Origin: Candidatus Aenigmatarchaeota archaeon
GTDB lineage: Archaea; Aenigmatarchaeota; Aenigmatarchaeia; CG10238-14; SCSR01
Direction: 5' to 3'
Assembly (NCBI GenBank): GCA_038999725.1
Contig: JAWBWS010000003.1
Span: 29,464 to 93,463 of the forward strand
Length of the DNA stretch: 64,000 nt
The position numbers and the translations under genes were made by a program. Positions 10,418-26,375 of this stretch are shown one piece after another. Position 1 is the first letter of the stretch, and each line of letters opens with the position of its first letter. Below the pieces are notes generated by a model. It did not search any database, was not told the DNA's origin, and saw only the letters and a list, made by a program, of their open reading frames with translations.

Positions 10418-11656
10418 TTGAAGAACTACCTTAAATACTTTATTGGAAGAATGATAGCCCAAGCCTTTATTACAACCTCAGCCGTTTTTCTTGGAATGGG
10501 TCTAAACTATTTGTTCCATTTCTTCATGACAAGGCTTTTGAGTCCAAGCTTATATGGAGAGATTTCAATTTTAATCGGGTTTTTAACCATCATATTAGTA
10601 CCCACAGGTAGTATACAAACTGTTTTAACAAGAGAAATTGCAAAGTTAGAGAAAAGGGGGAATGAAAGAGTTATAGTCGGTTTGATAAGGAGATATTTGA
10701 GAAGCGCTTTTCTTGTAGGTTTAACTATTGCTTTGGTTTTATTCTCTTCTTCCTATATGATTGCCAAGATTTTCAAGGACGACCAACTCATTTCATCTAT
10801 TCAGTTACTGTCTCTTGGCATTCCATTCCTGTTTTTACTTCCTATATTCAAGGCATATTACCAAGGAAGGGAGAAGGTTTTTACTCTCTCAGGAATTTTG
10901 GCTGTTGAACCTTTGATAAAATTGGTCTTTGGTGTAGGCCTGGTTTTGATTGGTTTTGGATTATCTGGAGCAACACTTTCCCTAATCGCTGGTCCCATCA
11001 TTTTGGTTTTCCTTCTTCTTCCAAGAACAATTAAAATGACAAGTTTCCCCAACTATTCCATCAAATTGAAAAAATCCTTTTTCCTCATTCTTCTCACTTC
11101 AATTTCCTTAATGATTTTCTTTTATCTTGATTTGTTCTTTGTGAGATATTATCTTGGTTCAGAGCAAGCAGGCTATTACAATGTGGCTTCAATAACTTCT
11201 AAAGTTTTGTCTTACGCAACTGGTGGAGTTGTTTTGGTTTTTCTTCCAAAATCTTCCAAGCTATCCATTAAAAAGGAGAGGGGAAAAATTAAAACTTTGT
11301 TGCTTAAGTCAATCGCATTTATTACCCCAATCTTCATAGTTTTTGTGCTCTTCCCAAAGGAAATCATCTCAATTTTCTACACAGAAAAATATCTTTTTGC
11401 CTTAGGTTCCTTTACAATCCTAACCTTTGGGATGTTCATCTTTTCAATTTTCCAAATCCTTCTCTCCTTCTTTTGGTCTCAAAATTCCGAAAGGTTTCCA
11501 TTGGTTCTTTCCATTACAGCAACCTTAATTGATTTCCTACTTTTGAATTATTTCATTCCAATTAAAGGAATTGAAGGAGCAGCCATTGCAACCACACTCT
11601 CTTCCCTGGTTTTTCTCCTTCCCTCAATCTTTGTTGTTAGGGGTATGCTGATTTAA
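10418..11656 (+). CDS. polysaccharide/oligosaccharide flippase (MOP/Wzx-like), multi-pass membrane protein
   Basis: 412 aa with about 12 hydrophobic helices; its size and topology fit Wzx/MATE-like flippases; sits in a glycosyltransferase context. Confidence 0.55.
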   Translation: MKNYLKYFIGRMIAQAFITTSAVFLGMGLNYLFHFFMTRLLSPSLYGEISILIGFLTIILVPTGSIQTVLTREIAKLEKRGNERVIVGLIRRYLRSAFLVGLTIALVLFSSSYMIAKIFKDDQLISSIQLLSLGIPFLFLLPIFKAYYQGREKVFTLSGILAVEPLIKLVFGVGLVLIGFGLSGATLSLIAGPIILVFLLLPRTIKMTSFPNYSIKLKKSFFLILLTSISLMIFFYLDLFFVRYYLGSEQAGYYNVASITSKVLSYATGGVVLVFLPKSSKLSIKKERGKIKTLLLKSIAFITPIFIVFVLFPKEIISIFYTEKYLFALGSFTILTFGMFIFSIFQILLSFFWSQNSERFPLVLSITATLIDFLLLNYFIPIKGIEGAAIATTLSSLVFLLPSIFVVRGMLI

Positions 11657-13097
11657 AGAAGTAGATGTTGCCTTTCAAATTTACCAAATTTTCATTTTGG
11701 CATTTTACTGGGGAATAAACCAAAGAAATGTTGTTTTCCACCAAAAAGCTTGTGTTGGTGCAGTTCTGCTTAAAAAATTTGTAGGCATTATCCACAAGCT
11801 CAAGATATTTTTCATCTGGACCAAAAGGCATCACAGAGTAAACTCTTCTTTCAGCTATTGTTGCAAAAGCTCTTGCTTTCCATGGATCTAGCAGAACTAT
11901 CGTATCTTCTCTCGTATTTTCCTTAATCCATAGAAAGTTTTCATAATCTTCATCGTCAATCAAATAATAGTAAGGAGTTTTCAAGTTTCTTTCAATTGCA
12001 AGGAAAGAGGTTGCAACCAGGGAAATTAAAAGCAAAGCTGAACCGAAATTCTTGAACGGTTTTTCCATTTTTAGGAGTTTGGTGTAGCCAAAGCTTGCTA
12101 TTATTGACATGAGCAAGAACAAGGGAATGTAAGTCCTTTGGTAAGGGATCAACCAGTTCAAGTTTAGCCTGACGAAAAGGAAGATGTTGAGGGTTAAAGT
12201 TAAAGAAGTGAGAAGCAAGGCCCAAATCTCTTTGCTTTTTGTTTTTGCTAGAAAATAAAATCCTAAAATGAAAGATCCTGTCGGCAAGAAGCCATAAAGA
12301 GATGGGATTTCCCTCAGGTAGAACCAAAAGTTGAACTGAACCGCTTTTATTCCTTTTGTTTGAATCTCTGGGATGTAGTTTGGCAAGGAGAACAAAATCG
12401 AAGCTATTAAAACGGATAAAATTTCTTTTGCTTTTTGCTTGTTTTTTAAATTGAGCAAGAGGTAAAATCCAAGGATTGTTAATAAAACCATTGCTGTCGG
12501 TGGATGTGTATAAAGGATGAAGGTTGTTATGGCGAATAAAGCTAAATGGTTGTAGATGGGTTTGAGGTTTGTGAGTTCAAAAGCAAAGAGAAGAGCCAGG
12601 GGGATGAAGATCAAACTTAAATTTATTGGAACCAAAAACACAGGCCCACCTATTGTTACATTACTTGGAACCAAAGCTATCAATAAAGCTGAAATCAAAG
12701 CCTCCTTTTTGCCAAAAATTTTTGAAGTGAAATAAAAAACCGAAAGAATTGATAGAAAGTGGAAAAGAATTGGGAGGAAAACCCATTGTTTTACACTTAG
12801 GTTAAAAAATTTTTGGATGAAAGCTAAAGTTAAGTGCCAACCTCTTTCCAAACCTAATTCAAATGGCTTGCCAGAATACCAATCTATTTTTTGGTTTGAG
12901 GCTATCATTTTTGCCACAGAAATGTGAAACCATTCGTCTACATGCAAAGGGTAAGGGTAGTTCAAGTGGGGGTAAAAGGTTAGGAAAGAGGCTAAGAAAA
13001 GGATGAAAATCAAGCAAGCTATTTCCTTATTTTCAATTTTCTCTCTTCTCTTAGATATTCTATTATTAGGCATGCTACACCAACAACCAATAGCCAA
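11637..13097 (-). CDS. GT-C fold membrane glycosyltransferase-like protein (PMT/ArnT-like), putative
   Basis: Multi-TM protein with an acidic DE-type motif (HVDEWFH) in the first extracytoplasmic loop region, plus a C-terminal soluble domain. Confidence 0.4.
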   Translation of the reverse strand: MAIGCWCSMPNNRISKRREKIENKEIACLIFILFLASFLTFYPHLNYPYPLHVDEWFHISVAKMIASNQKIDWYSGKPFELGLERGWHLTLAFIQKFFNLSVKQWVFLPILFHFLSILSVFYFTSKIFGKKEALISALLIALVPSNVTIGGPVFLVPINLSLIFIPLALLFAFELTNLKPIYNHLALFAITTFILYTHPPTAMVLLTILGFYLLLNLKNKQKAKEILSVLIASILFSLPNYIPEIQTKGIKAVQFNFWFYLREIPSLYGFLPTGSFILGFYFLAKTKSKEIWALLLTSLTLTLNIFLFVRLNLNWLIPYQRTYIPLFLLMSIIASFGYTKLLKMEKPFKNFGSALLLISLVATSFLAIERNLKTPYYYLIDDEDYENFLWIKENTREDTIVLLDPWKARAFATIAERRVYSVMPFGPDEKYLELVDNAYKFFKQNCTNTSFLVENNISLVYSPVKCQNENLVNLKGNIYFFKSAYP

Positions 13098-13381
13098 TAG
13101 GTATAAATTGCTAATTGGTTTGCTAAAACTTCATTTTTGTAAAATGCCAAAACAATTGCTGCTAAAAAAAGTATCAGCAAAGCATAGGCTACAGGAATTC
13201 TTCCATCAAATTTGAAGAAGGTAAAAATTGGAATTAAGGCAATGAAAGACAAGAAAGTTGGCATGTCTTGAGATTTGAAAATGAAGTGGGATAAAAAAAT
13301 GGAAAAAACCACTAAAATGTAAGGAAGTTGTAATTTGGGGTCAGCCATTTTCTTTTTGATTTTTTTGGTCAAAGTGCCCAT
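13019..13381 (-). CDS. small 3-4 TM membrane protein (GtrA/DUF2304-like size class), hypothetical
   Basis: 120 aa and hydrophobic; sandwiched between two GT-C-like genes. Confidence 0.35.
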   Translation of the reverse strand: MGTLTKKIKKKMADPKLQLPYILVVFSIFLSHFIFKSQDMPTFLSFIALIPIFTFFKFDGRIPVAYALLILFLAAIVLAFYKNEVLANQLAIYTYWLLVVGVACLIIEYLREERKLKIRK

Positions 13382-16300
13382 TTTTTAGACCTTTTCTTTA
13401 AAATTTTTGGTAGAAACAATTTTTTAAAACTGATGTTTTTGCCTTTTTTCCAATCATAGATTAAGTAACCAATGCAAGCTATGAATGTTATACCGGAAAT
13501 CACTAAACCAATCTCAAACCACTCTTGAGGTTTATATCTTATTTCTATTTCATATTCTCCAGTCTTATTTATCCAGAAGCCGTTTATAACTCCATACAAA
13601 GGTATGGAGTGGTATTCTACCGTTTTTCCATTCTCCTTTATTCTTGCAACCCACAAAGGATCATAACTTTCAGCAAAGCTCAGCATGAATGGCTTAGAAG
13701 CATTCACTTGGACTTTCCAGAGGGTTGGGTCGATTTTTTGATAGCTGAGGACTTGAGCTGGAGTTTCGTTCACTTTAAATAAATCTTCTATTTTTTCATC
13801 TGAAGTGTTGGATTCTACCGAATATATCCAAGCTACATCAAGATAAGTTAACGGATATCCGTAAATTGTAACATTTTTTACCCAAACTATATTTGGAATG
13901 GGTTGCTTAGTTTCATGGCCGTGCCATATTTGTAACTGAATATACGCAACGGAAGTGTTTTTAGGCTTATACTCGTAGTTTATTTCCTTCCAGTCAAATG
14001 TTCCTTCTCCTATTCCTCCAGCATAAACACCACCAATATACTGCTTCGAAGAGTTGTATTCAAATATTTTGAAATGGACGCTTTGCCCATTCACTGCTTT
14101 GACAAAAAAGTCAAATTTATATTTCACCCCATATTTTGCTGGAATTAAAGGCGAGTTAATTGTTTTCCACCCCCAAGTTGAATTATAAAGTTCTGTTCTG
14201 AGAGCTTTTTCTTTTTCATCCCAGAAAACTTTGTATATTTGGCTTTCTTTGGTGTATTGTTTCCATTCTTCCACTTCTTCTTCATAAAAGTTCCAAGTAA
14301 ATGGTTGTAGAGTTGTGTCTGGCTCTATTTGAATTTTGTGTGGCCCTTTTTCTAAATAAATTGGCCCAAAATAGGTAAAGTTGTTGGAAGTAATTGAAAA
14401 GCTTTGATTATCAATTCTTATTTTTAAAGCTCCATACAAGTTTATGGCAAATCTGTAGAAGCCATTCTTAACAAATTCAAATTCTCGCCAGGCTTTTCCA
14501 CTTGGCGTTATGACCAAAAATTCTCCATTACTTGCTTTACCGTACTTTTCTTTCTCAGCATTTTCCCTGTAAAAATCACTCTCGCCTTCAAAGAGGTAAA
14601 TTATAGTTTTATTCCTCAACATCTCTTCAACTTCTTTTTCTTTTCTAGCTAGTTCATCACTTGTAACCAGAGCAAACAAATTGATAGCATTGAAACCTTT
14701 AATGTTCCTCAAGATGAGTTTGTGCTTACCTTTCTCCAAATAAAATTCTCCCAAATCTCCCCAAACAAATTTGTTTAATTGTTCTAAAGTGTTGAGTGAA
14801 ATCTCTTTGTTGTCTAAGAAAATTTTTATTGATCCTCCTTTTTGATTTTTAAAGTATCTTATGAGTAAATGATAATTTTCAGTCTTTTCTAGCTTAAAAT
14901 TTATTTCTAGGTCATTTGACTCTGTAAATTTAGATAGATCGTAGAGTTTAACATAATCTAGCCAATAATATGAGTTGGTTTGATTGTTTTGCCAAACCCA
15001 AAACTGTATCTTTATATATTTAGAGTCAGAAGGTATTAAAATTGTAGAGGAGAATTCCTTCCAATCAAATGTTTCATCTTGAGTAATAAAAACAAAATCA
15101 ACTTTTATTTCTTCTTTCTTCTCGTTAAAGTAAATTATCTTTGAATGAACTCCTTTAGAATCTTTACCGGATATTAAAACTTTACACTGATACCAATTGT
15201 CCGGTTTTATTGGCAAATAGTCAGTAGAAATAACTTTCCATCCCCATTCATCACCTTTTTTAATTTCAACTTGTAGGCTATAATTATCATCCTTTGATTT
15301 GGTTGAACTTGTAATATTCAGCACAAGAGGGCTCAAATTTGTAAAGTTTTGTAGAAATTTAGAATCGAAATTATAAATTAGATCATCATCTGTAGGTACT
15401 ATCTTCTCTTTTAACTTAGAAGGTGCCCATGTGAAAACCAATCCTTCACCATAATCTGATTGCCAGTTTTCTATTCCAAATTGTTCTAGGTAAGGATGCC
15501 AGCCCCCATGAAGAGGGTCAGAAGTTGATGCTCTTGACCATAGCTTTGACGGGTTGTGGCGATATGTAGAGTCGAATGTTTTTATCAAGAAAGAATTTTT
15601 GGAAAAGATATTAGAATAAAAATCTGGATTAATTTCTAATTCTGTGGCCTCATTCTCATTCATTCCTGTTAAAACTGACAAAGAATTATTAAGCAAAGAT
15701 AACGAGCCCAATAATTTATAATCAAAATCTTTTGATGATGCTATTTTATTTTTAATGTAGATATTCTTTATTTCGTCTCTTTCTGGCAAATATATGTTAA
15801 TCCCTTCTTTCGATTCTGGATAAATATAATAAATTTTTGGGTTTTCGATTTCTAGATTTGTGATTAAAGCATCTGCTCCAGTCAAATAAGAAATATAATA
15901 AATTGTTTTTTCATCACCTTTTTTGAAAGAATGTTTTAGATATCTACTCAAATCATTTGGAAGATTTATGTAAGGTTTTCCAGTATGATGCGCTTTGAAA
16001 TTTCCTTGATAATTAGAAAGTAAAACTATGGATTTGTTATAGGGTGCTCTATCATAATGTTCTCTATCTTCGAAATAATAACCTTTTCTAAGAATCCCGT
16101 CCAAATCACCTGTAAATCTCTGCCATCCGATAATTAAAGATGATAAAATTATAATAATGCATAAAATTATTCCAATTTTTTTAAATTTCCTCATTCTAAA
16201 AATCCAAGAAAGCAAAGAAAAAATGCAAAGTGAATAACCTAAAACTACTAACGATCCAAAATAGCCAGGAACTCTAAACATCCAACCAATAGAGGGGTGG

Positions 16301-17379
16301 GTTGAAAATAATAGAAACTCATAAAATCTAGAAAAAATAGGATTAAAGTTGGTAATTCCTCTCCATAGAAAAATTCCCAATAATAAATTTGAGCTACCAA
16401 CCACCACCAAGAATTTTTCTTCTCTACTATATCTATTGAATAAAAGTATAGAAACCATCGCTAAAATAGGAATCAAGAAAAGTATAATATTAAAAATGCT
16501 TTCTGGAATAAATGGAAATGGCTTTAATTGTAGATATGGCCACCATGATGCCTTTAAAGTTAAAATGTCAGCAGGTTTATAAGCAGATGAAAACATATAC
16601 GTTGCTTCATAAGATAGCATATAGGAGGGACTAATTTTAGAGATGGGACCAATTGCTGGCAAAAACCAATAAAAATTAAAGAGTAGTAAAAAAATAGAAA
16701 TAAAAATATATTTTTTAATAATTTCTTTCAAAAAAGAAATAGTCCCTCCATAGAATATTATATACAAACTTGTAGTGATAGATAACAAAATAAAGATAAA
16801 TATAATATATCTGAAAATTGGAGTAATTGATAACGTAATTAACAAACACAAAAATAATTTTGATTTTAAATTTTTACTTCTTAAAAAATAAAGTGTAGCT
16901 ACAATTATTGTTGGGAGAAGCGAGTAAGATATTACATAGGTGTTAGGAGGTGAAAATGCTTGTATGGTATATGGATTAATAGAAAATAAAAAAGCAAAAA
17001 CAATAGATAATAAAAAAATGTTTTTATTATCGAATCCAAACAGATTTTCAATTAAATAAAAAAGAGACAGATATGGTATTAAAAATATACATATAAAATA
17101 AAAGATACAATATAATCTTGAAGATATTTCTATTTTAGAGGATAGTGAAGGAATGGTTGCTAACCACAATCTTGCTATTCCTTCATAAAATTGATATGAG
17201 CCATAGTTTGACCAAGTAAAAAAATATTGTAAAATCAATTGTGGAAAGGGTGGAATTATTACATCTCTATGTTCTACAATAATGGAAGTATTTTCGAAAA
17301 GTAAGTAACTTATACTCAAAATTCCAGTAAGCAGACTGAGCAATAAAGCAATAAAATGATATTTGTATGTTTTTGACAT
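13369..17379 (-). CDS. giant (1336 aa) polytopic membrane protein with a large extracytoplasmic beta-rich domain containing two homologous carbohydrate-binding-like repeats and a C-terminal TM; putative GT-C type glycosyltransferase (AftD/DUF3367-like architecture)
   Basis: The N-terminal ~450 aa are multi-TM. An internal repeat is visible: WKVISTDYLPIKPDNWYQCKVLISGKDSKGVHSKIIYF vs WKTINSPLIPAKYGVKYKFDFFVKAVNGQSVHFKIFEY. C-terminal TM IGLVISGITFIACIGYLIY. Confidence 0.45.
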   Translation of the reverse strand: MSKTYKYHFIALLLSLLTGILSISYLLFENTSIIVEHRDVIIPPFPQLILQYFFTWSNYGSYQFYEGIARLWLATIPSLSSKIEISSRLYCIFYFICIFLIPYLSLFYLIENLFGFDNKNIFLLSIVFAFLFSINPYTIQAFSPPNTYVISYSLLPTIIVATLYFLRSKNLKSKLFLCLLITLSITPIFRYIIFIFILLSITTSLYIIFYGGTISFLKEIIKKYIFISIFLLLFNFYWFLPAIGPISKISPSYMLSYEATYMFSSAYKPADILTLKASWWPYLQLKPFPFIPESIFNIILFLIPILAMVSILLFNRYSREEKFLVVVGSSNLLLGIFLWRGITNFNPIFSRFYEFLLFSTHPSIGWMFRVPGYFGSLVVLGYSLCIFSLLSWIFRMRKFKKIGIILCIIIILSSLIIGWQRFTGDLDGILRKGYYFEDREHYDRAPYNKSIVLLSNYQGNFKAHHTGKPYINLPNDLSRYLKHSFKKGDEKTIYYISYLTGADALITNLEIENPKIYYIYPESKEGINIYLPERDEIKNIYIKNKIASSKDFDYKLLGSLSLLNNSLSVLTGMNENEATELEINPDFYSNIFSKNSFLIKTFDSTYRHNPSKLWSRASTSDPLHGGWHPYLEQFGIENWQSDYGEGLVFTWAPSKLKEKIVPTDDDLIYNFDSKFLQNFTNLSPLVLNITSSTKSKDDNYSLQVEIKKGDEWGWKVISTDYLPIKPDNWYQCKVLISGKDSKGVHSKIIYFNEKKEEIKVDFVFITQDETFDWKEFSSTILIPSDSKYIKIQFWVWQNNQTNSYYWLDYVKLYDLSKFTESNDLEINFKLEKTENYHLLIRYFKNQKGGSIKIFLDNKEISLNTLEQLNKFVWGDLGEFYLEKGKHKLILRNIKGFNAINLFALVTSDELARKEKEVEEMLRNKTIIYLFEGESDFYRENAEKEKYGKASNGEFLVITPSGKAWREFEFVKNGFYRFAINLYGALKIRIDNQSFSITSNNFTYFGPIYLEKGPHKIQIEPDTTLQPFTWNFYEEEVEEWKQYTKESQIYKVFWDEKEKALRTELYNSTWGWKTINSPLIPAKYGVKYKFDFFVKAVNGQSVHFKIFEYNSSKQYIGGVYAGGIGEGTFDWKEINYEYKPKNTSVAYIQLQIWHGHETKQPIPNIVWVKNVTIYGYPLTYLDVAWIYSVESNTSDEKIEDLFKVNETPAQVLSYQKIDPTLWKVQVNASKPFMLSFAESYDPLWVARIKENGKTVEYHSIPLYGVINGFWINKTGEYEIEIRYKPQEWFEIGLVISGITFIACIGYLIYDWKKGKNISFKKLFLPKILKKRSKKWAL

Positions 17380-18407: not shown

Positions 18408-18845
18408 CTACCACAACAAATTATTTTTATCTAAAAGTAACCAAGTTTTGGGTAGATCTTCTGATTTATTTATGTTGATATTTATACCATTAATAAATTC
18501 ACCATAAGCCATCCCATCTCCAGCAACTAATCCAATAGTAGTGTTAATTTCTTTTTCGTTACATGGTAATGTAATAGATGTCTTTTTAATATAATTAAAT
18601 ATTTTCTCAGTGAAAATATTTAAATAATTCTCTTTAGCTAACTCCTCTACTACTATAGTTTTTTCGAAAGACAATTTTATTAAATTTTGTAAATAATATA
18701 TGAATTTTTCTATTATGTAATGAATTGTAGGTTTGTCATAAAGTGGTAATAATGGTTTTGGTAAAATATAACCCGAGAATCCAATTCTACTTCCCATTCC
18801 AGTAGTAGGGATAACACCTTCTTTAATTTTACTTATCTTGGCCAT
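18408..18845 (-). CDS. degenerate paralog of a sugar-phosphate nucleotidyltransferase (internal ~120-aa deletion; probable pseudogene)
   Basis: The N-terminus (KIKEGVIPTTGMGSRIGFSGYILPKPLLPLYDKPTIHYIIE) and C-terminus (EKEINTTIGLVAGDGMAYGEFINGINININ) align with CDS 21004..21792, but the central domain is missing. Confidence 0.5.
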   Translation of the reverse strand: MAKISKIKEGVIPTTGMGSRIGFSGYILPKPLLPLYDKPTIHYIIEKFIYYLQNLIKLSFEKTIVVEELAKENYLNIFTEKIFNYIKKTSITLPCNEKEINTTIGLVAGDGMAYGEFINGINININKSEDLPKTWLLLDKNNLLW

Positions 18846-19861: not shown

Positions 19862-20939
19862 TAGTTAATTCTAGAATTTTTTTATTTAATTCATCGAAGT
19901 TGTCAGTAATTATAATATTTTTAAATTTTTCAAATCCTCTCGCACCCATTTCTGTTGAAATAATTGGTTTATTAAATTTTAAATAATCGAAAATTTTTAT
20001 TTCAACACCAGTATCACAGATGGTTTTTGGATTTATAAAAGCGTCGCAAAGGCTTAGATACGAATCTAGATCTTTCACAAAGCCTTTAAGAATAACATTA
20101 CTAGGTATATTCTCTCTTTTTTTGAACACATCACAAACTTTTCCCAATATTAAAAAGACAATGTTTTTATCCTCCAGTTTCTTTGCAATCTTAATTATGT
20201 TTCTTACACTAATTATGTTAGGCTCAAATTTTGCTCCTACAAATCCAATTACAAACTTATCCTTCAAAATTTGTTTTAGTTTTTTTGGTGGTTTTAATTT
20301 CCTTTTTTTACGAGTGATATAAAATGGTAACAATACAGATATCTTTTTAGGTGAAACTTTATGATGGATTAGGATTTTTTTATCATTATCTGACAAACAA
20401 ATGACCAAATTCGATTTTTTAATTGCATCTAATTCTATATATCGGATTAACCAAATTAATGGTTTGTATATTTCTTTTCTACCTGTTAATTCGTAAAATA
20501 ATTTCCACTCAACATTATGTTCATAGAGAGCGCAAGGAATACCCAAGTTATTAGAAATTTGGGAGATAATTCCTGTAAATGTTGGATAATTAGAAATAAT
20601 TAGATCTGGTGTCTCTCTTTTTATTAATTCTCTTATTCTTCTTTTCCATATAAAATCCACTTTAGATATATAGTGAATGAAAATAAAGAAAATCAAATTC
20701 AATAACCATCTTTTTTCCGAACTTTGATAGTTCTCAGATAAGCCCCTCTTTTTTAAAGAAAAATATTTCATTATTTTGGAGGTAATGGATCCGACATTTG
20801 GAAGTGAAAGACATTTTACTTTATAGCCAAGTTTTTCTTCAAAGAACTTTTTTTGCCTCCAAATAAGAGAGGCTCCGCCGAAAGAATGTTTACTCACTTC
20901 TCTATTGCTGTTGGGATGAATTATTAAAATATTTTTCAT
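19854..20939 (-). CDS. GT-B fold glycosyltransferase (GT4-like)
   Basis: 361 aa with two Rossmann-like halves; C-terminal EMGARGFEKFKN resembles the GT4 E-x7-E region. Confidence 0.6.
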   Translation of the reverse strand: MKNILIIHPNSNREVSKHSFGGASLIWRQKKFFEEKLGYKVKCLSLPNVGSITSKIMKYFSLKKRGLSENYQSSEKRWLLNLIFFIFIHYISKVDFIWKRRIRELIKRETPDLIISNYPTFTGIISQISNNLGIPCALYEHNVEWKLFYELTGRKEIYKPLIWLIRYIELDAIKKSNLVICLSDNDKKILIHHKVSPKKISVLLPFYITRKKRKLKPPKKLKQILKDKFVIGFVGAKFEPNIISVRNIIKIAKKLEDKNIVFLILGKVCDVFKKRENIPSNVILKGFVKDLDSYLSLCDAFINPKTICDTGVEIKIFDYLKFNKPIISTEMGARGFEKFKNIIITDNFDELNKKILELTNG

Positions 20940-20963
20940 CCCCTCACCTTACTCACCAAATAT
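20935..20963. repeat. 29-bp exact direct repeat (copy 1) ttcatcccctcaccttactcaccaaatat
   Basis: Identical to 23411..23439. It contains the start codon and an SD-like GGTGAGGGG upstream of the downstream minus-strand gene. Confidence 0.9.
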
Positions 20964-21038
20964 AGAAAAGAGAGATTTCCATAGAGAAGAGAATCTACCT
21001 CCATTATAGTTTAGTAAAATAATACTCACTAAGGGCAT
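20949..21038 (-). pseudogene. 29-aa N-terminal remnant of a GT2 glycosyltransferase (MPLVSIILLNYNGGRFSSLWKSLFSIFGE*)
   Basis: Hand translation of the minus strand. It matches the N-terminus of GT2 17382..18404 (MNKMPLVSIILLNFNGAKYSNLWKSLF). Its start overlaps the 3' end of the nucleotidyltransferase gene and its stop lies inside the 29-bp repeat. Confidence 0.6.
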
Positions 21039-21792
21039 TTTTTTCACGCTTCACCCCATCCCTAATGATAAGCCAGGCCTTTAGTAAATTTTCTGGGTCA
21101 TTAATATTTATGTTTATTCCATCTATAAATTCGCCATAAGCTTTTCCATCTTTGGCAATTAATTTAATAGTGTTAGTAATTTCTCTTTCATTTCTCGGTG
21201 GGGCTATTGGGGTTTTCTCTATATAATCAAATATTTTTGTGTTAAAGACATATATTCCAGTGCCTCTAATTTTTGAGATAATTTTCTGTGGCTTTTCTAC
21301 TATTTCAATAATTTGATTATCTTTATTGAGTTTAACACAACAAGTAGATCTAAGGGTGTTTTCATCATTTTCACTTACTAAACCTTCAACTACTATCGCC
21401 TTTTTTTGAAAAAATGTTTCTATCAAATTTTGGAGGGAAGCTGTTATTGTGCAGTCGTCTCCAAGAATAGTAATAAATGGTTCATTAATGAAATCCTTCA
21501 CAGAATAGATGGTTGAAGCTATACCGCGTGTTGGCCTTTTTAATTCTATCAAATGAATTTTGGCATTTATAAATTCTTTTGTCTTTTTAAAATACTCTCT
21601 AAATTTTTCTTTGTGATAAAAAATAGGTATATATATTTCTTTAACCCCAACTTTTAACATATTTTCTATTATGTAATGAATTATTGGCTTGTCGTAAAGC
21701 GGGAATAGCGGTTTTGGTAAAATATGACTTAAATATCCCATCCTTTTTCCTTTTCCAGCAGAAGGTATTACGCCAATTTTTATTTTATTCAT
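21004..21792 (-). CDS. sugar-phosphate nucleotidyltransferase (NTP-transferase fold, RmlA/GlmU-like)
   Basis: GVIPSAGKGKRMG...ILPKPLFPLYDKPIIHYIIE N-terminal nucleotide-binding signature; 262 aa. Confidence 0.8.
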   Translation of the reverse strand: MNKIKIGVIPSAGKGKRMGYLSHILPKPLFPLYDKPIIHYIIENMLKVGVKEIYIPIFYHKEKFREYFKKTKEFINAKIHLIELKRPTRGIASTIYSVKDFINEPFITILGDDCTITASLQNLIETFFQKKAIVVEGLVSENDENTLRSTCCVKLNKDNQIIEIVEKPQKIISKIRGTGIYVFNTKIFDYIEKTPIAPPRNEREITNTIKLIAKDGKAYGEFIDGINININDPENLLKAWLIIRDGVKREKNALSEYYFTKL

Positions 21793-21814
21793 CTTTCCCC
21801 GCCTTTCTTAAATC

Positions 21815-22519
21815 TTACTTTTTTGCTGAAACATATAAAAATCTTGAAAATGCAGATCCAAATAATATCTTTAAAAGTTGTTCTGTCCATAAAATAATTT
21901 TTAGAAGAAATTTATTTGAAGTTTTATATAAAATGTCAGGTAATTTTGGACCATATTCTATTCGATTTATAGAAAAATTGTTTTTCCTAAGAATTTTTAA
22001 TAACTCGCTTTTAGATACTCGATTATAAGGAAGTTTGTGAAAAACATTCGCTCTATTTATTGAATATTTATTTGGCATTGAAAATACAAATATACCATCT
22101 CTTTTAAGAACTCTGTTAATTTCATTTAGAACATATCCTAAATTATTAACATATTTTAATACCCTAATTGCGTAAATGAAGTCAAAGGCTTCATCCCTAA
22201 AAGACAATCCTTTAGAAATATCGCATTTTAATATATTAACAAATCTAAATCTTTTTAGTTTTTCTTTGCATCTATTAACCATTTCTTCGGATATATCTAC
22301 CCCCGTAAATCTCACATTTTTTTTCACAACTTCTTTAGAAATTCTGCCAGGTCCAGTACCAATTTCTAAAACATTAATTTTATTTTTTCTGCTTGGAAGA
22401 TTTGATAAAACAAAATTTATTTCATTTTTGCTTATAATCTCCATTCCTTGCGCTCTATATGAATCCAGATACTTTTCACCTAAATAATTATAATATTTTT
22501 TGACATCCACTTTAATCAC
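21815..22519 (-). CDS. class I SAM-dependent methyltransferase
   Basis: Motif I VLEIGTGPGRIS followed by an acidic residue after beta2 (GVDISEEMV). Confidence 0.75.
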   Translation of the reverse strand: MIKVDVKKYYNYLGEKYLDSYRAQGMEIISKNEINFVLSNLPSRKNKINVLEIGTGPGRISKEVVKKNVRFTGVDISEEMVNRCKEKLKRFRFVNILKCDISKGLSFRDEAFDFIYAIRVLKYVNNLGYVLNEINRVLKRDGIFVFSMPNKYSINRANVFHKLPYNRVSKSELLKILRKNNFSINRIEYGPKLPDILYKTSNKFLLKIILWTEQLLKILFGSAFSRFLYVSAKK

Positions 22520-23415
22520 TCAAAATATTTTTCTGGGTTTGAAGTTATAATAATTTCATTATTTCTTATCATTCTACAAATAATATCATAGCATTTTTTT
22601 TCTAGATTTACATAATTCAAATTTTGAAAATAAAGAATTGCATGAATGAATTTGTCATTATCATATGGGATTCTTTTTGAATATATCTTTAATAAATTAA
22701 TTAATGTATTTTCATTTTTTACATTAAATTGATTTTTTATCTTTTCAGGTATAATGAAAAGGAGTTTATTTATTTTAGCCTCTTTTTTGGAGTTATTAAC
22801 CAATTTCTTGATATTGACATTAAAAAATTTGTGATCATTCGGAGGAAGTAGATAAACTTTTTCTCCATCCGTCAATATAATATCCTCAGAGATATATTTA
22901 GCACCTTTCTTAAGTAAATTTTCAACGAGTAGCGTCTTACCTGTTCTCGAAGGAGAAAAAATTAATATCGTTTTTTGATCGTACTCTAAACTTGCACCAT
23001 GAATAAACAAAAGATTTTTCTCTAAAAGTAAATCAAGCGCTATAATATTGGAAAGATGTAAGCCTATTGGCCAAATTTGTCCTAATTCGAAAGGTATAGA
23101 TAGACTTAAACGATTAGCTATAATAGTTTTTTTCTTTAAATTATAAGAAAATCTGAATGATACAGGACCAATTTTTCGTATATAATATATTGTACTGTTT
23201 TTTAGAACATAATATTGATACTTAGCATTTGGTTCTTTTGGAATCTTCACCTCTCCTATTTTAAAATAATATTTATAATTTGCATAAAAATTGAAAAAAT
23301 TAAGTAAAAAGTTATTATATTCCTCGTTATATTTACAGATTGCAAAACCTTTGAGAGGTAGAATTTCTGTTTGAATTTCTACTATATCCGGAGAAATAAC
23401 CCATCTATAGTTCAT
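22516..23415 (-). CDS. hypothetical protein with an HprK-like P-loop (Walker A) domain
   Basis: IHGASLEYDQKTILIFSPSRTGKTLLVENLLKKGAKYISEDIIL resembles the HPr kinase C-terminal P-loop pattern G.SG.GK(S/T)...L...G..L..DD. Confidence 0.4.
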   Translation of the reverse strand: MNYRWVISPDIVEIQTEILPLKGFAICKYNEEYNNFLLNFFNFYANYKYYFKIGEVKIPKEPNAKYQYYVLKNSTIYYIRKIGPVSFRFSYNLKKKTIIANRLSLSIPFELGQIWPIGLHLSNIIALDLLLEKNLLFIHGASLEYDQKTILIFSPSRTGKTLLVENLLKKGAKYISEDIILTDGEKVYLLPPNDHKFFNVNIKKLVNNSKKEAKINKLLFIIPEKIKNQFNVKNENTLINLLKIYSKRIPYDNDKFIHAILYFQNLNYVNLEKKCYDIICRMIRNNEIIITSNPEKYFE

Positions 23416-23439
23416 CCCCTCACCTTACTCACCAAATAT
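23411..23439. repeat. 29-bp exact direct repeat (copy 2)
   Basis: Identical to 20935..20963. Here it encodes the C-terminus YLVSKVRG* of GT2 23412..24272 and the start of 22516..23415. Confidence 0.9.
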
Positions 23440-24272
23440 CCCAATCCTGCTGAAAAATATCCTGTATAGTAACCAATTGCTTTTATTAGTAGTAAAAGGT
23501 GAGATTGTAAACCTAATTTCCAATCCTTTAAAGCTCCCTTCCTTAGTCTGACCTTTTTCTTTAATAAGTCTTTATAGTACCCACTTTTAATAAGATCATA
23601 AGTTGATCTTCCATATCTATAATTCTTTTTAACTAAACTCCATAAACTGTTTGGCTCAATATGCCAACAAGCATCTGGAAGGATGCCAACCTTTTGAGAA
23701 ATCTTATACGCTTCATAATATATTATCGCATGATCATGAGCAATTACACTAGGAAATAACTTTCTTGGGATTTTTTTAAATGCATTTTCTAAAATTTCTC
23801 TTTTGTAAAATCTAGCTAGTAGAACACCTTCTAATGGGTCTATATGAATTTTTGAAAGTTTATGAGTAAGTCGTCTATCAGCATCAAAAAGCTTTTGAAT
23901 CAATGAATTAGGTTCGTAAGTAAATTCCTCAAGAACAAGCATATCATAGTTTTTCATTAATTCCAAAGCTCTTTTAATTACACTTTCATTTTTTAGAATC
24001 TGATCAGAATCCATCATTAGGATAAAACTTCCTTTAGATTTTTCAAAGCCTAAATATCTTGCTCCAAGAAGTTTCCAATTGGTCTGAATAATATCTACTC
24101 CAAATTCTTTAGAAATTTTAACTGTTCTATCAGAACTAGAAGAGTCGACAACAATAACCTCAATATTATTATAACTCTGATTTTTAATGCTCTCTAAGCA
24201 CTTAGCCAAGGTTTTTTCTGAATTGTAAGTTGGAATTACAATTGAAACTAATGGCTTGGAAGCATTTTTCAT
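23412..24272 (-). CDS. family 2 glycosyltransferase
   Basis: VSIVIPTYNSEKTL...EVIVVDSSSSDRT. Confidence 0.8.
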   Translation of the reverse strand: MKNASKPLVSIVIPTYNSEKTLAKCLESIKNQSYNNIEVIVVDSSSSDRTVKISKEFGVDIIQTNWKLLGARYLGFEKSKGSFILMMDSDQILKNESVIKRALELMKNYDMLVLEEFTYEPNSLIQKLFDADRRLTHKLSKIHIDPLEGVLLARFYKREILENAFKKIPRKLFPSVIAHDHAIIYYEAYKISQKVGILPDACWHIEPNSLWSLVKKNYRYGRSTYDLIKSGYYKDLLKKKVRLRKGALKDWKLGLQSHLLLLIKAIGYYTGYFSAGLGYLVSKVRG

Positions 24273-24435
24273 ATTATAAAATAGTTAAGCAAATTAATAT
24301 AAAAGGTGTGGAAGTCTTGTGATAATTACATGGGGTTATGAAGACGAGATTAAAATTGGGAACAAGAAAATTGTTTTCAAGCCATTATGGAAATGGTTTT
24401 TGAATATTTAGATAATTTAAGATTGTTGTTATTTT

Positions 24436-25521
24436 TCACTTCTTTTTTATAACCATTTTTATAATCTTCTCGAACTCTTTAGCACTTCTATCCCAATCAA
24501 ACTTCCTAGCCCATTCCAAAGCATTCTTACTCAATTTACTCCTTAGCTTCTCATCCTCTAAAACTTTTATTATGGTTTGAGCCAAAGCCTTGGGATTGTT
24601 TTCAACCAACATTCCATTGTAATTATCTTTCAAAGAGTCCCTTAACCCCGGAACATCGTAAGCTATGGCTGGTGTCGCTAATGCATTAGCATCTGTAACA
24701 ACTTGCCCCCAACCTTCCCTTACTCCAGGCACGACAATAACCCAAGCCTTTTTCATCAACTCAATTTTCTTTTTTTCATCTAAATATCCAAAAAACCTAA
24801 CTTCCCCCGTTGATATTTTTTCCAATTTTCTTCTCAAATAGCCATCGCCGACCATCCATAATCTAACATCGCTCATCCTTCTCCTCACAATCTTAAAAGC
24901 TTCCAAGACATCTTGAGGCTTTTTTGCCCTTTTCATCCTCCCAACAAAAATTATTGTTGGTTTCTCGGCTTTTTTTGGAGGTTTTTTAAGAGGCTTAACA
25001 TTTGCCCCATTGTGAACAATAAAGACTTTTTTAAACCCTAAGCTCAGCAAATCCATTTTTGTGCTTTCTGAAACGGTGATTGTTGGGATATCAATGTAAT
25101 TCTTTAACCACTTGTTCTCGAGCCAGTAATAGCCAATCCAACTTATTGGAAAAGATGTCTCATAAAACCAAAATTCCCTTGCTAGCTGATGAATTAGACA
25201 AATTACTTTCTCCCCCCTGACAAACTTTGGGGCAAAAAATGGTATTGTGTTGATTTCATCTATTACTACATCAAACCCCTCTTTAGAGAAATACTTTTTG
25301 TAATATTCTTTCGCCTTTAAGTAGAGGGAATACTTTCCACCCTTTCTAACAATTCTTATCCCCTCTAGGGACTCCTCTTTCTTACAGCCTGGAAATTCTG
25401 AGGTAAAGAGTGTGACTTCATTCCCTTTTGCTATCCTCTTGAAAATTTCATGTGTGTATCTCTCTGCTCCCCCAGCCTCAGGATTTTTTATGTCTCTCCA
25501 ATTGAACACCAATATCTTCAT
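24436..25521 (-). CDS. GT-B fold glycosyltransferase (GT4 family)
   Basis: C-terminal EGWGQVVTDANALATPAIAYDVPGLRDSLKDNYNGMLVE matches the GT4 E-x7-E region. Confidence 0.75.
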   Translation of the reverse strand: MKILVFNWRDIKNPEAGGAERYTHEIFKRIAKGNEVTLFTSEFPGCKKEESLEGIRIVRKGGKYSLYLKAKEYYKKYFSKEGFDVVIDEINTIPFFAPKFVRGEKVICLIHQLAREFWFYETSFPISWIGYYWLENKWLKNYIDIPTITVSESTKMDLLSLGFKKVFIVHNGANVKPLKKPPKKAEKPTIIFVGRMKRAKKPQDVLEAFKIVRRRMSDVRLWMVGDGYLRRKLEKISTGEVRFFGYLDEKKKIELMKKAWVIVVPGVREGWGQVVTDANALATPAIAYDVPGLRDSLKDNYNGMLVENNPKALAQTIIKVLEDEKLRSKLSKNALEWARKFDWDRSAKEFEKIIKMVIKKK

Positions 25522-26375
25522 TTCCTCAACCCATCATAATATCTTAAAATCTTCAAACGATAGAAGATTGCAGCAGTATCCAAAACAATCCTCATCACAT
25601 CCCTTACCTTAACTCTACTACCAATCCTTTGAAAGTGTAATTCAACAGGAGCTTCAACAATTCTGAATCCTCTGTGGTTAGCGTTGACGAGCAACTCCAA
25701 GTCAAAAGCATATTTCTTGCACAAAACTCTTGGGAAAACTTCTTTCAAGACCTTATATTTAAAGAGTTTTAAGCCAGCTTGTGTATCTCTTACACTCAAA
25801 TTAAACAAAAATTTTGTTATTAATTGATAACCGTAGCTTAAAATCCTTCTATGTAAAGGATAATCAATTTTTGACAAAGGATGTCTTTTCGAGCCGACAA
25901 CAACATCTGCACCATACTTCTTCATGAAATCAATAAATAAAGGGATTTGTTTAGGATGCAAATCTAAATCAGCATCAATAAAAGTAATGAGTTTTCCGGA
26001 ACAAAAATTGAACCCATATTTTAAGGCAGACCCCTTGCCTCCATTTTCTTTCCTAATAACTCTTACCCTTCTATCTCCTCTAGCAGCTTTTATTGCTTCA
26101 TCGTAAGTGTTATCAGAAGAGCCATCATCAATCACAATTATTTCATAGTCCAATCCAGAAGCATCAAGCACTTTCTCTATTTCTCTTATACTCTTGAATA
26201 TAATCCTACCTTCATTCCAAGCTGGAACTATTACAGATAGTTCTTTCATTTTCACTCTCTCCTTAAATTTAAGTAAGAAAAACAATAAAAAATAATTTCC
26301 ATCCTTGCTACTCTTGCAGCAAGACAAGCGACTTTTGTATTGAAAGAAAATAAAGCTTTTGTCAAGAGGCTTCAA
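25518..26375 (-). CDS. GT2 dolichyl/polyprenyl-phosphate sugar synthase-like glycosyltransferase (DPM1/AglJ/GtrB-like); the true start is probably the internal Met at MKELSVIVP
   Basis: LSVIVPAWNEGRII...EIIVIDDGSSDNT...KGSALKYGF is the signature of Dol-P-sugar synthases. Confidence 0.7.
   Translation of the reverse strand: MKPLDKSFIFFQYKSRLSCCKSSKDGNYFLLFFLLKFKERVKMKELSVIVPAWNEGRIIFKSIREIEKVLDASGLDYEIIVIDDGSSDNTYDEAIKAARGDRRVRVIRKENGGKGSALKYGFNFCSGKLITFIDADLDLHPKQIPLFIDFMKKYGADVVVGSKRHPLSKIDYPLHRRILSYGYQLITKFLFNLSVRDTQAGLKLFKYKVLKEVFPRVLCKKYAFDLELLVNANHRGFRIVEAPVELHFQRIGSRVKVRDVMRIVLDTAAIFYRLKILRYYDGLRK

Follow-up and report, generated by a model that had tools for sequence, protein, structure and literature searches.

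The stretch of DNA that we analysed, hereafter the window (64 kb of an Aenigmatarchaeota (DPANN) contig), contains at 10.4–26.4 kb a dense and contiguous block of glycan genes. This region is very probably a mosaic, dolichol-dependent surface-glycan locus, whose glycan would be built in the cytoplasm, flipped, and elaborated outside the cell by GT-C enzymes. All genes lie on the minus strand, except for that of the flippase. The set comprises a Wzx-like flippase, four GT2, two GT4, two GT-C, a nucleotidyltransferase and a decayed copy of it, a SAM methyltransferase and a P-loop protein, as follows, together with a small membrane protein:

10451..11656, +, predicted Wzx/MOP-family lipid-linked glycan flippase (Polysacc_synt_3 E 5.7e-17, above cut-off)
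11637..13073, −, 478-aa GT-C with STT3/AglB/PglB-like fold (AF2, Foldseek and family profile)
13019..13381, −, 120-aa protein with four hydrophobic segments (4-TM), overlapping the start of the 478-aa gene
13369..17379, −, 1336-aa AftD-like GT-C (GT-C by predicted fold; sequence links to PF11847)
17382..18404, −, GT2a, 340 aa (PF00535 E 8e-25; one C-terminal hydrophobic segment)
18408..18845, −, internally deleted nucleotidyltransferase copy, 145 aa (BLASTP against the 262-aa enzyme)
18833..19861, −, GT2b, 342 aa (PF00535 E 6e-26)
19854..20939, −, GT4a, 361 aa (Glyco_trans_1_4 48.9 bits and Glyco_transf_4 43 bits, both over cut-off)
21004..21792, −, sugar-1-phosphate nucleotidyltransferase, 262 aa, NDP-sugar supply (NTP_transferase E 4e-32)
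21815..22519, −, class I SAM-dependent methyltransferase, 234 aa (Methyltransf_11 E 5.6e-22)
22516..23415, −, P-loop (GKT) protein, 299 aa (TIGR04352/TIGR04355 E about 1e-3)
23412..24272, −, GT2c, 286 aa (PF00535 E 1.4e-26)
24436..25521, −, GT4b, 361 aa, a member of the conserved frame (Glycos_transf_1 E 6e-36)
25518..26375, −, GT2d, polyprenyl-phosphate sugar synthase-like (PF00535 E 1.8e-32)

A first-pass annotation had described a surface-glycan biosynthesis island, and this description held: a MOP/Wzx flippase, a GT2 of the polyprenyl-phosphate type, soluble GT2/GT4 enzymes and two GT-C proteins, outer-face by fold, were all recovered. In profile searches, the assignments by Polysacc_synt_3, PF00535 (GT2 genes), PF00534/PF13439/PF13692 (the GT4 pair), NTP_transferase and Methyltransf_11 passed curated cut-offs. 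The earlier counts of two GT4, a nucleotidyltransferase, a methyltransferase and a flippase stood, but not that of five GT2 plus one Dol-P-type enzyme, as there are four GT2 in total, including the Dol-P-sugar-synthase-like one. Two genes had been overlooked, namely the 120-aa ORF and the 145-aa nucleotidyltransferase copy.

The cytoplasmic part of the pathway, with the donors, acceptors and order of steps that we infer, would start with the 262-aa nucleotidyltransferase making an NDP-sugar. Its best NCBIfam matches were the archaeal GlmU N-domain, RmlA-long and AglF, all under equivalog cut-offs. GT2d would then charge dolichyl phosphate, either as the first glycan step (AglJ-like) or to yield a Dol-P-monosaccharide donor (AglD/GtrB-like). 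Its best NCBIfam matches were all polyprenyl-phosphate enzymes (PgfS, ArnC, PpgS, AglJ and Dol-P-hexose transferase), and because the Pfam domain begins at residue 47, Met43 (26249) is its likely start. The soluble or peripheral GT2 and GT4 enzymes, among which GT2a and GT2b are paralogues (32% identity), would lengthen the lipid-linked glycan, and the methyltransferase and the P-loop protein may modify it. The genes for these last two overlap by 4 nt, the P-loop gene lying upstream. The HprK likeness claimed for this protein proved weak (E about 1e-3 to TIGR04352/TIGR04355). Among 58 relatives, 3 matched Hpr_kinase_C (PF07475), 4 were fused to SAM-methyltransferase domains, and single members were fused to GT1 or GT2 domains. 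The family has 245 representatives in 1.84e9 proteins and an invariant Walker lysine (K160), and a PDB profile search gave generic P-loop matches only, with no characterised relative. We propose that it is a glycan or sugar kinase, distantly HprK-C-like.

Lipid-linked sugar would next reach the outer face via Wzx. The flippase also had weaker matches to Polysacc_synt and MurJ and carries at least 10 hydrophobic segments; its ORF opens at 10418 and its start is probably 10451 (401 aa), by analogy with the 401-aa call in the homologous loci L001 and L002. Outside the cell, both GT-C enzymes would then extend the glycan or transfer it, drawing on lipid-linked donors, with the glycan acceptor possibly held by the carbohydrate-binding-like modules of the 1336-aa enzyme. 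Precedents for joining a polyprenyl-phosphate sugar synthase, a flippase and an outside-acting GT-C are the Haloferax AglD/AglR/AglS route, with Dol-P-sugar and a MOP flippase (PMC3871713), and bacterial three-component systems, with Und-P-sugar (PMC11127046). The latter (GtrA/GtrB/Gtr*, or the Citrobacter polyprenyl-P-ribose synthase with a MATE flippase and GT136) have the same three component classes as the island and the same logic, the GT-C acting on an already exported glycan. Unlike in these systems, the island components are non-contiguous, GT2d being 12 kb from the GT-C/Wzx module, and the donor's flippase may be either Wzx or the 4-TM protein.

That the two polytopic proteins are GT-C-like, as first proposed, was borne out by predicted fold, and sequence also tied both to GT-C families. 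The 478-aa protein (its ORF of 486 aa has its true start at 13073) gave a confident AF2 model (pLDDT 92.6, pTM 0.91), for which the top 19 Foldseek matches in the PDB were all oligosaccharyltransferase (OST) catalytic subunits (E 1e-11 to 1e-7, TMq 0.59-0.69). STT3/AglB/PglB (GT66) is thus its best structural match, and the family profile matched AfAglB 3waj at TM3-4 (E 1.6e-5). Invariant residues in the family are D46, E47, W48, E76 and P397; the loop-1 Asp-Glu pair (D46 E47) is retained, its Asp aligning with the OST catalytic Asp. The C-terminal domain starts as in GT66, with 'W-I-K-E-N-T', a beta-strand, a motif and a helix. In contrast to GT66, the motif between strand and helix is not WWDYG but LLDPW (394-398), in which Asp396 is kept, no obvious second acidic (DxD) motif was found in the enzyme, the model has about 11 TM helices instead of 13, and the Pfam search gave no PF02516 match; PMT_2 scored 23.5 bits, under cut-off. 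The chemistry of this enzyme is not readable from OST precedents.

The 1336-aa protein begins with a polytopic GT-C domain (about residues 1-430), has a large extracytoplasmic region containing CBM_4_9-like modules, and ends in a TM anchor. Mycobacterial AftD (PF11847; PDB 6w98, 6wbx) likewise has a GT-C membrane domain at its N-terminus, a membrane anchor at its C-terminus and a very large extracytoplasmic portion that carries carbohydrate-binding modules of the beta-sandwich type; both proteins also have a basic residue paired with an Asp in loop 1 (R38-D39 here, K39/D41 in AftD). The profile of the 1336-aa protein matched the AftD C-terminal domain and TM anchor, while the protein itself had no direct Pfam match to PF11847. 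Differences are the single C-terminal TM helix, against five in AftD (which has 16 TM helices altogether), and the archaeal host, with dolichol instead of decaprenyl donors; there is no sign of arabinofuranose or ACP binding. A transfer role had been suggested for this protein. Its architecture, AftD-like with carbohydrate-binding modules, instead points to glycan elaboration, not to transfer to protein, and is no less compatible with a polysaccharide or lipoglycan than with a glycan on protein.

Between the two GT-C genes lies the gene for the 120-aa protein, which is also called in L001, L002 and L006. It was found in all loci with a close 478-aa homologue, mostly directly upstream of it or overlapping. 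The protein has invariant residues D59, R61, E84 and N88; Pfam, NCBIfam and PDB searches returned no relatives, and no GtrA or SMR similarity was detectable. We propose that it is a subunit or a small flippase for the lipid donor. The order of this trio (large GT-C, small 4-TM protein, 478-aa GT-C) is kept across MAGs that include Aenigmatarchaeota and Thermoplasmata, and subsets of these loci also share Wzx and the GT2d-GT4b pair. In Aenigmatarchaeota, the Wzx gene is convergent with the 478-aa gene.

Comparison of the island with its flanks in GC and codon usage, proposed earlier as a check for horizontal acquisition, was positive. The core (13.4-24.3 kb) had a GC of 0.25-0.31 and a GC3 of 0.16-0.26, against 0.373±0.027 and 0.333±0.041 elsewhere, so that the locus is mosaic, with host-like ends around an AT-rich core. 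We suggest that the ends form a conserved frame, with GT2d (GC 0.339) and GT4b (GC 0.377, host-like) on one side and the AftD-like GT-C, the 120-aa protein, the STT3-fold GT-C and the convergent Wzx on the other. The core would be laterally exchanged, with its three GT2, one GT4, nucleotidyltransferase, methyltransferase and P-loop kinase-like protein. GT4b recurs together with GT2d in L005, L006, L019, L023 and L024, and the order nucleotidyltransferase, GT2, large GT-C is kept in L003 and L005. Three small features mark the core and its edge:

20936..20963, 28-bp direct repeat, copy 1, TCATCCCCTCACCTTACTCACCAAATAT (exact match to 23412-23439)
23412..23439, 28-bp direct repeat, copy 2 (last 8 GT2c codons, overlapping the ATG of the P-loop gene)
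24298..24411, +, 3' remnant of a DUF4143/AAA_14 ATPase (about 30 codons, inside a 163-nt spacer)

Between the perfect 28-bp repeats lies a 2.5-kb block 95% identical to L003, from another genome, which appears to be a freshly inserted three-gene cassette. The stretch of 95% identity ends right beside copy 1, which also provides the start-codon context of GT4a. By nucleotide comparison GT4a was not found in L003, and GT2b had no close counterpart there (a single 133-nt match at 68%). The ATPase remnant, whose translation (...LVIITWGYEDEIKIGNKKIVFKPLWKWFLNI*) aligned with the C-terminus of the L003 ATPase, is collinear with L003 (blastn 87.5% over 88 nt) and looks like a deletion scar at the GC boundary. 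It shares the core with the cassette and with the decayed nucleotidyltransferase copy. Residues 4-45 of the latter match residues 1-43 of the 262-aa enzyme at 48%, residues 50-138 align, with large gaps, to 110-243, GalU/RmlA models matched it over its first 40 residues only, and a 145-nt DNA repeat within it is 75% identical to 21662-21806; it is probably non-functional. An AT-rich variable centre between conserved ends, with recent cassette exchange and gene decay, recalls bacterial O-antigen and capsule loci (low-GC, mosaic, cassette-exchanging serotype loci). Unlike these, the island has an archaeal host, different conserved flanking genes, and no recognised Wzy polymerase or chain-length regulator.

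What the locus decorates may be sought first in its neighbours:

4200..8978, −, membrane-anchored S8 subtilase, 1592 aa (Peptidase_S8 E 2e-56), a candidate glycoprotein and a neighbour rather than a pathway member
9126..10397, −, surface protein, 423 aa, Thr-rich (TTTTTLP)n stalk, TM-anchored at its C-terminus, a candidate substrate for N- and/or O-glycosylation

Both had been noted as sequon-rich, and the figures agree: the subtilase carries 45 N-X-S/T where shuffled sequences give 18.4±3.7 (z 7.2), and the 423-aa protein carries 9 against 4.5 (z 2.3). Extracellular proteins of this organism gave z 7.2, 3.8 and 2.3, and cytoplasmic proteins z ≤ 0.7, which argues that N-glycosylation operates in the organism. 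A pure N-glycan island, whose lipid-linked oligosaccharide would be passed to sequons in the two neighbours by a canonical AglB encoded at a distance, with the GT-C enzymes adding only terminal sugars as AglS does, is a serious candidate, if somewhat short of an even chance. Besides the sequon enrichment, a statement in PMC8993221 (citing Nikolayev 2020) gives AglB as general in DPANN archaea, and in the Dehalococcoidales loci L048, L049 and L052 a canonical WWDYG OST sits beside a distant 478-aa homologue. The Haloferax volcanii agl cluster (AglJ/G/I/E, AglF, AglP, AglD-AglR-AglS, AglB; PMC3871713) has the same clustered enzyme classes, namely a Dol-P-charging GT2, soluble GTs, a sugar-1-P nucleotidyltransferase, a methyltransferase, a Wzx-like flippase and an outer-face GT-C using a Dol-P-sugar donor, and here too sequon-rich surface proteins are the likely targets. 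Yet no island member reaches an Agl equivalog cut-off, the conserved 4-TM partner and the P-loop kinase-like protein are extra, and there are two GT-Cs, the STT3-fold enzyme and the AftD-like one that carries CBM-like modules, the latter without counterpart in known archaeal N-glycosylation pathways. As the first-pass annotation had stated, the window lacks canonical AglB: a search in all six frames of the 64 kb found no W[WF]DxG motif. The absence of STT3 is true at the motif level only, as the 478-aa model has the STT3/AglB fold. Scans of the island proteins and of larger ORFs elsewhere in the window gave no phosphoglycosyltransferase of the initiating AglH/PF00953 type, and with neither this initiator nor WWDYG found, the pathway is incomplete in the window; if the product is an N-glycan, final transfer to Asn would need a canonical AglB encoded elsewhere.

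Adjacency to these surface proteins, whose link to the locus we infer, is kept in only one other species-level relative, L006, which likewise adjoins an S8 peptidase; in L006/L008 the Wzx gene has a homologue of the 423-aa protein next to it (phmmer score 390). The trio itself is also kept in wall-less Thermoplasmata, which make lipoglycans, and this speaks against a pure N-glycan island; more distant 478-aa homologues are present in Dehalococcoidales. A second possibility, which we find rather less likely, is that the trio builds or decorates a non-protein glycan, a surface polysaccharide or membrane-anchored lipoglycan fed by Dol-P-sugars outside the cell, as in mycobacterial arabinan/lipomannan. 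This distribution fits it, as do the PF11847 links and the CBM_4_9-like modules of the 1336-aa enzyme, AftD CBMs being known to bind growing arabinan (bioRxiv 10.1101/2019.12.22.885152). Against it, the locus yielded neither a polymerase nor a chain-length regulator nor an export system, and sequon-rich glycoprotein candidates adjoin it.

It is improbable that the 478-aa enzyme and its small partner form a non-canonical, sequon-independent OST, for instance one that O-glycosylates Thr-rich stalks such as that of the 423-aa neighbour. The OST fold, the AglB profile match, the aligned loop-1 Asp and Asp396 would suit such an activity, as would the invariant D46-E47, which we take to resemble the DE motif of protein O-mannosyltransferases, and the Thr-rich protein adjoining both here and in L006. 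However, WWDYG and an obvious DxD are missing, the C-terminal domain has only about 110 residues, and no Thr-rich neighbours were seen outside Aenigmatarchaeota among homologous loci. A cytoplasmic glycoside or compatible solute is very hard to credit, as GT2c/GT2d scored 39-58 bits against glucosyl-3-phosphoglycerate synthase (GpgS, cut-off 262) and the nucleotidyltransferase 58 bits against IPCT/DIPPS (cut-off 580), all far under cut-off, while Wzx, two GT-Cs with large extracytoplasmic domains and polyprenyl-phosphate-type GT2 matches are present.

The region is a real but broadly ordinary sugar-coat cluster of a tiny DPANN archaeon. What goes beyond ordinary content is an uncharacterised, conserved trio of outer-face membrane proteins, along with what appears to be a three-gene cassette of fresh insertion.

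The window, which comes from a Candidatus Aenigmatarchaeota MAG, holds, at 10.4-26.4 kb, a tightly packed series of glycan genes, which the ORF listing and translation placed on the minus strand throughout save the first gene, the flippase, as the first-pass annotation had stated. Gene assignments were taken from Pfam and lie above curated cut-offs unless noted otherwise. They bore out the earlier proposal that the stretch contains a genuine surface-glycan island, and its general interpretation.

Genes of the glycan island
10418/10451-11656, plus strand: Wzx/MOP flippase (Polysacc_synt_3, E 5.7e-17)
11637-13073, minus strand: 478-aa STT3-fold GT-C
13019-13381, minus strand: 120-aa ORF with four TM
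13369-17379, minus strand: 1336-aa AftD-like giant GT-C
17382-18404, minus strand: GT2a (PF00535)
18408-18845, minus strand: 145-aa ORF, an internally deleted nucleotidyltransferase copy
18833-19861, minus strand: GT2b (PF00535)
19854-20939, minus strand: GT4a (GT4-type domains)
21004-21792, minus strand: nucleotidyltransferase (NTP_transferase, E 4e-32)
21815-22519, minus strand: SAM-dependent methyltransferase
22516-23415, minus strand: 299-aa P-loop protein (HprK-related kinase A/B models, E ~1e-3)
23412-24272, minus strand: GT2c (PF00535)
24436-25521, minus strand: GT4b (GT4-type domains)
25518-26375, minus strand: GT2d (PF00535)

The two GT4 genes counted previously were recovered, whereas the five or six GT2 genes came down to four with a PF00535 match, and the 120-aa four-TM ORF and the 145-aa nucleotidyltransferase copy had been overlooked. 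The flippase scored 62.3 bits with PF13440 (cut-off 23) and 33.2 bits with PF01943 (cut-off 28.2), and 10 hydrophobic segments were detected in it, giving both the profile and the polytopic topology (at least 10 TM) of the Wzx/MOP family. The best NCBIfam matches of GT2d were all polyprenyl-phosphate glycosyltransferases (PgfS, ArnC, PpgS, AglJ and Dol-P-hexose transferase), in line with the Dol-P-sugar-synthase-like GT2 that had been predicted. A compatible solute as the product of the cluster was rejected after NCBIfam profile scoring of the island enzymes.

The best-supported model for the island is a dolichol-dependent pathway. NDP-sugar would be supplied, GT2d would charge Dol-P, and the GT2 and GT4 enzymes would lengthen the glycan in the cytoplasm, where it would also be methylated and perhaps phosphorylated; Wzx would then flip the glycan, and the two GT-Cs would act afterwards at the outer face. 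The final acceptor could be an Asn-linked glycan, Ser/Thr, or else a lipid or polysaccharide. GT2d could equally be an AglJ-like initiator rather than a Dol-P-monosaccharide synthase. A polyprenyl-phosphate sugar synthase-like GT2, a Wzx/MOP protein and a GT-C (by fold) are encoded together, an arrangement for which AglD/AglR/AglS in Haloferax (PMC3871713) and bacterial three-component systems using a MOP-family flippase (PMC11127046) provide precedents.

Two surface proteins are encoded next to the island. The 1592-aa S8 subtilase (4200-8978, minus strand) contains 45 N-X-S/T sequons, where composition-matched shuffles gave 18.4±3.7 (z 7.2), and the 423-aa protein (9126-10397, minus strand), which has a (TTTTTLP)n stalk, contains 9 against 4.5 expected (z 2.3). 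The largely extracytoplasmic 1336-aa protein likewise has 20 sequons where 9.7 were expected (z 3.8), and the same shuffles gave no excess for cytoplasmic proteins. This enrichment supports the view that N-glycosylation is active in the organism. It makes the subtilase and the 423-aa protein candidate glycoproteins, but speaks for the organism rather than for a link between these two proteins and the island. At the L006 locus, whose 478-aa relative is 68% identical, a homologue of the 423-aa protein and an S8 peptidase also adjoin the island counterpart. The two surface proteins have in common a C-terminal module of ~85 residues (...VDTxNNxVxANxSHFSxFGxFG...), beyond which lie a Pro/Thr-rich linker and a TM anchor; it recalls archaeal pre-PGF-type surface-anchoring domains and gave zero family-model matches.

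The window does not contain a complete agl locus. Its lack of an AglB/STT3 motif, already remarked on, was confirmed for WWDxG, with zero W[WF]DxG matches in all frames, and the window proteins that were scanned included no initiating phosphoglycosyltransferase. An AglB gene probably lies elsewhere in the genome, because DPANN archaea are reported to have AglB (PMC8993221).

The GC and codon comparison of island and flanks that had been suggested was positive. Genes at 13369-24272 have a GC content of 0.25-0.31 and a GC3 of 0.16-0.26, against 0.373±0.027 and 0.333±0.041 for genes outside the island; the composition of Wzx, the 478-aa gene, GT4b and GT2d matches the host. Such glycan clusters are common in general, which makes the island as first described unsurprising; as a class it is ordinary, an archaeal glycan cluster whose variable core is low in GC. 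What goes beyond the ordinary is an uncharacterised, widely conserved trio of genes, comprising an STT3-fold enzyme without WWDYG, an AftD-like giant and a small membrane protein, and an unusually clear recombination signature.

The 478-aa protein is named 'glycosyltransferase family 39' by NCBI, and its loop 1 does carry the DE pair that is a feature of GT39. GT39 was nevertheless rejected as the label that describes it best, as PMT_2 scored 23.5 bits, below its cut-off of 26.1, and Pmt4 came only 29th in Foldseek (E 4e-3). The Pfam search gave no match to STT3 (PF02516) and reported PMT_2, below cut-off, and DUF6798 alone. The predicted structure pointed elsewhere. The model (pLDDT 92.6, pTM 0.91, from an alignment of 48 homologues) had OST catalytic subunits as its top 19 Foldseek matches in the PDB (E 1.3e-11 to 1.3e-7, TMq 0.59-0.69), these being yeast and human STT3, A. 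fulgidus AglB and C. lari PglB, with AftA, ArnT, DPY19, AftD and Pmt4 ranking below them. The family profile also matched AfAglB by sequence (E 1.6e-5), over TM3-4 and a weak piece just before the WWDYG position.

The catalytic motifs were compared by profile-profile alignment with canonical OSTs taken from Dehalococcoidales loci. D46 of 'HVDEW' is invariant and aligns to the loop-1 catalytic Asp of OSTs ('SxDAYY'), albeit with an hhalign probability of only 40%. In the same weak (40%) alignment, the segment facing the second acidic DxD/DxH motif of OSTs, after TM3-4, is PSNVTIGGPVFLVP, with no acidic residue. The WWDYG motif of the OST C-terminal domain binds the +2 Ser/Thr of the sequon; it is absent from the 478-aa protein, which has LLDPW at the equivalent position. 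This equivalence is drawn from flanking sequence and predicted secondary structure, since the alignment ends before the C-terminal domain: the OST pattern '...W-x-K/R-E-N-T-P...WWDYG-helix' corresponds to 'FLWIKENTREDTIVLLDPWKARAF' in the 478-aa family. LLDPW has a predicted strand on one side and a helix on the other; its P397 is invariant and its D396 almost invariant. Going by the model, the 478-aa protein is STT3-like in fold, yet it falls outside the OSTs on their defining motif because LLDPW replaces WWDYG in its family.

The 1336-aa protein is part of a rare family, which amounts to ~40 clusters in a set of 5.8 billion and whose distant members carry PF11847 (GT-C_AftD) and DUF6541. It aligned to one PF11847-bearing member in the membrane domain (E 5e-10) as well as in the C-terminal domain (E 5e-27). 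In the PDB, the family profile matched the C-terminal domain and TM anchor of AftD (6w98/6wbx, E 0.04) and a CBM in 4d0q (E 8e-4); CBM_4_9 was found at E 0.0017 in the protein itself and down to 3.9e-9 in relatives. As in AftD-type enzymes, the protein has an extracytoplasmic CBM region and a C-terminal re-entry into the membrane, the last hydrophobic segment being residues 1290-1308. The model of residues 1-700 was mostly above pLDDT 90 in its membrane part, and its significant Foldseek matches were GT-C enzymes only. K39 and D41 are essential in AftD (bioRxiv 10.1101/2019.12.22.885152), and R38-D39 in the first loop of the 1336-aa protein parallels them. The common plan is a GT-C with CBM-like beta-sandwich modules and a C-terminal anchor; in mycobacteria, the acceptor for this plan is a polysaccharide. 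No DPA-pathway gene (PRPP transferase, DprE1/E2) was seen within the window. The length of the ORF is backed by full-length homologues of 1343-1358 aa; the NCBI call for this gene (P0001) is 1029 aa, that is, 77% of the ORF.

We inspected the gene neighbourhoods of homologues of both GT-Cs and screened by phmmer 80 genome loci with 478-aa relatives. A small four-TM gene was present in every locus with a close 478-aa homologue, mostly directly upstream of or overlapping it, and the AftD-like giant lay upstream in most such loci, typically where the upstream flank was long enough. The trio was found in Aenigmatarchaeota, in Thermoplasmata/Thermoplasmatales and in a small number of other MAGs, and remoter 478-aa homologues in Pacearchaeota, Woesearchaeota, Dehalococcoidales, Deltaproteobacteria and Patescibacteria. 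The convergent arrangement of Wzx and the 478-aa gene is an Aenigmatarchaeota feature, and the GT2d and GT4b pair recurs in several loci.

In the small protein, D59, R61, E84 and N88 are invariant. Searches of Pfam (E <= 1), NCBIfam and PDB profiles yielded nothing meaningful for its relatives, and a GtrA or SMR identity was likewise unsupported by them. In four Thermoplasmata loci (L009, L010, L014 and L015), where its gene immediately precedes that of the 478-aa homologue, the small partner has an N-terminal CPxC...CxxC zinc ribbon, which Aenigmatarchaeota lack. Next to the 478-aa homologue, three Dehalococcoidales loci encode a canonical WWDYG OST. The OST in these MAGs (L048 7522-9954, L052 1386-3818, L049 3883-5502) has 811 aa and its neighbour is a remote homologue (~31% identity). 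From this adjacency, Dehalococcoidales appear to carry an N-OST-like gene alongside the 478-aa family.

It is tempting to see in the trio a previously unrecognised archaeal outer-face glycosylation machine, in which the STT3-fold enzyme would be a sequon-independent protein glycosyltransferase and the giant GT-C would extend the attached glycan, but we regard this as quite improbable. On that reading, the STT3-fold enzyme may, for example, be the long-sought enzyme behind archaeal O-glycosylation, with Thr-rich stalks as its targets.

The HprK-like label given earlier to the P-loop protein fits at most distantly. The protein scored 18 bits with TIGR04352/TIGR04355, well below the cut-off of 200 that would place it with the HprK-related kinases, it had no Pfam match, and the PDB profile search returned generic Walker-A matches alone. 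At E <= 1e-3, a search of 1.84 billion proteins gave 245 representatives of the family. In 58 aligned relatives, conservation was limited to the Walker A motif; three gave Hpr_kinase_C (PF07475) matches (best E 8.8e-6), four were fused to a SAM-methyltransferase, and single members carried a fused GT1 or GT2 domain. A kinase that modifies the glycan would be a plausible role for the P-loop protein. The P-loop and methyltransferase genes overlap by 4 nt, and WbdD is a kinase-methyltransferase chain terminator; by analogy, a WbdD-like capping role for the pair might be imagined, as an idea only.

At the DNA level, we compared the low-GC core with L003, the corresponding locus of another Aenigmatarchaeota genome (GCA_038998425.1). 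The core was collinear, with very uneven identity.

Matches of the island to L003
20962-23460: nucleotidyltransferase, methyltransferase and P-loop genes, 95.1% identity
15424-16994: N-terminal part of the giant GT-C, 85% identity
Other matched segments (8 short blocks): various, 67-87% identity (28-bp repeat itself 100%)
18850-20935: GT4a and GT2b, essentially without L003 counterpart (one 133-nt match, 68%)

The 95.1% cassette block is flanked by a perfect 28-bp direct repeat (20936-20963 and 23412-23439, 2476 bp apart). On the coding strand, one copy forms the last eight codons of GT2c and overlaps the ATG of the P-loop gene, and the other supplies the start context of GT4a. The 163-nt spacer between GT4b and GT2c holds ~30 final codons of a DUF4143/AAA_14 ATPase gene (24298-24411, plus strand), exactly at the GC-content boundary. 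Two intact copies in collinear position in L003 mark this remnant as a deletion scar. The 145-aa nucleotidyltransferase copy occupies the 'NTP-GT2-giant GT-C' position that is conserved in L003 and in a further locus, L005, and is probably a gene in decay that the incoming cassette has rendered superfluous. Collectively, the repeat-flanked 95% block, the ATPase remnant and the decayed copy indicate a putatively recent insertion of the cassette into a core in ongoing turnover. In cassette insertion and turnover, the island is like bacterial serotype loci.

A tRNA-linked integration of the island was rejected, as tRNA-Ser (1121-1205) and an integrase fragment (3573-4175) are at least ~9 kb away from the low-GC core. 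The 1121-4175 region, with tRNA-Ser(GGA), a Cys-rich zinc-finger ORF, an Lrp/AsnC-like HTH ORF, an AbrB/SpoVT-like and RelE/ParE-like pair judged by eye (2955-3484) and a 200-aa tyrosine-recombinase fragment with the N-terminal SAM-like domain only, looks like the remnant of an integrated element. The remaining window genes are housekeeping (TIP49, PCNA, primase, enolase, aminoacyl-tRNA synthetases). The TIP49/RuvBL-type AAA+ ATPase (26381-27760, E 9e-135) is followed by an overlapping zinc-ribbon protein (27750-28370) with a weak PIH1_CS-like match (E 0.02), and the two could form an archaeal R2TP-like pairing.

The DPANN cell surface mediates host attachment and, to our knowledge, almost no DPANN glycosylation enzyme has been studied; the island offers a defined, conserved and testable gene set for DPANN surface glycosylation. 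An STT3-fold enzyme that lost the sequon-reading WWDYG and stays strongly conserved together with a small partner of its own is relevant to the diversification of the OST fold and, if the 478-aa enzyme acts on protein, to the question of who O-glycosylates in archaea. Finally, the 28-bp-flanked 95% cassette and the decayed duplicate represent a clean serotype-like cassette exchange in an uncultivated archaeal lineage.
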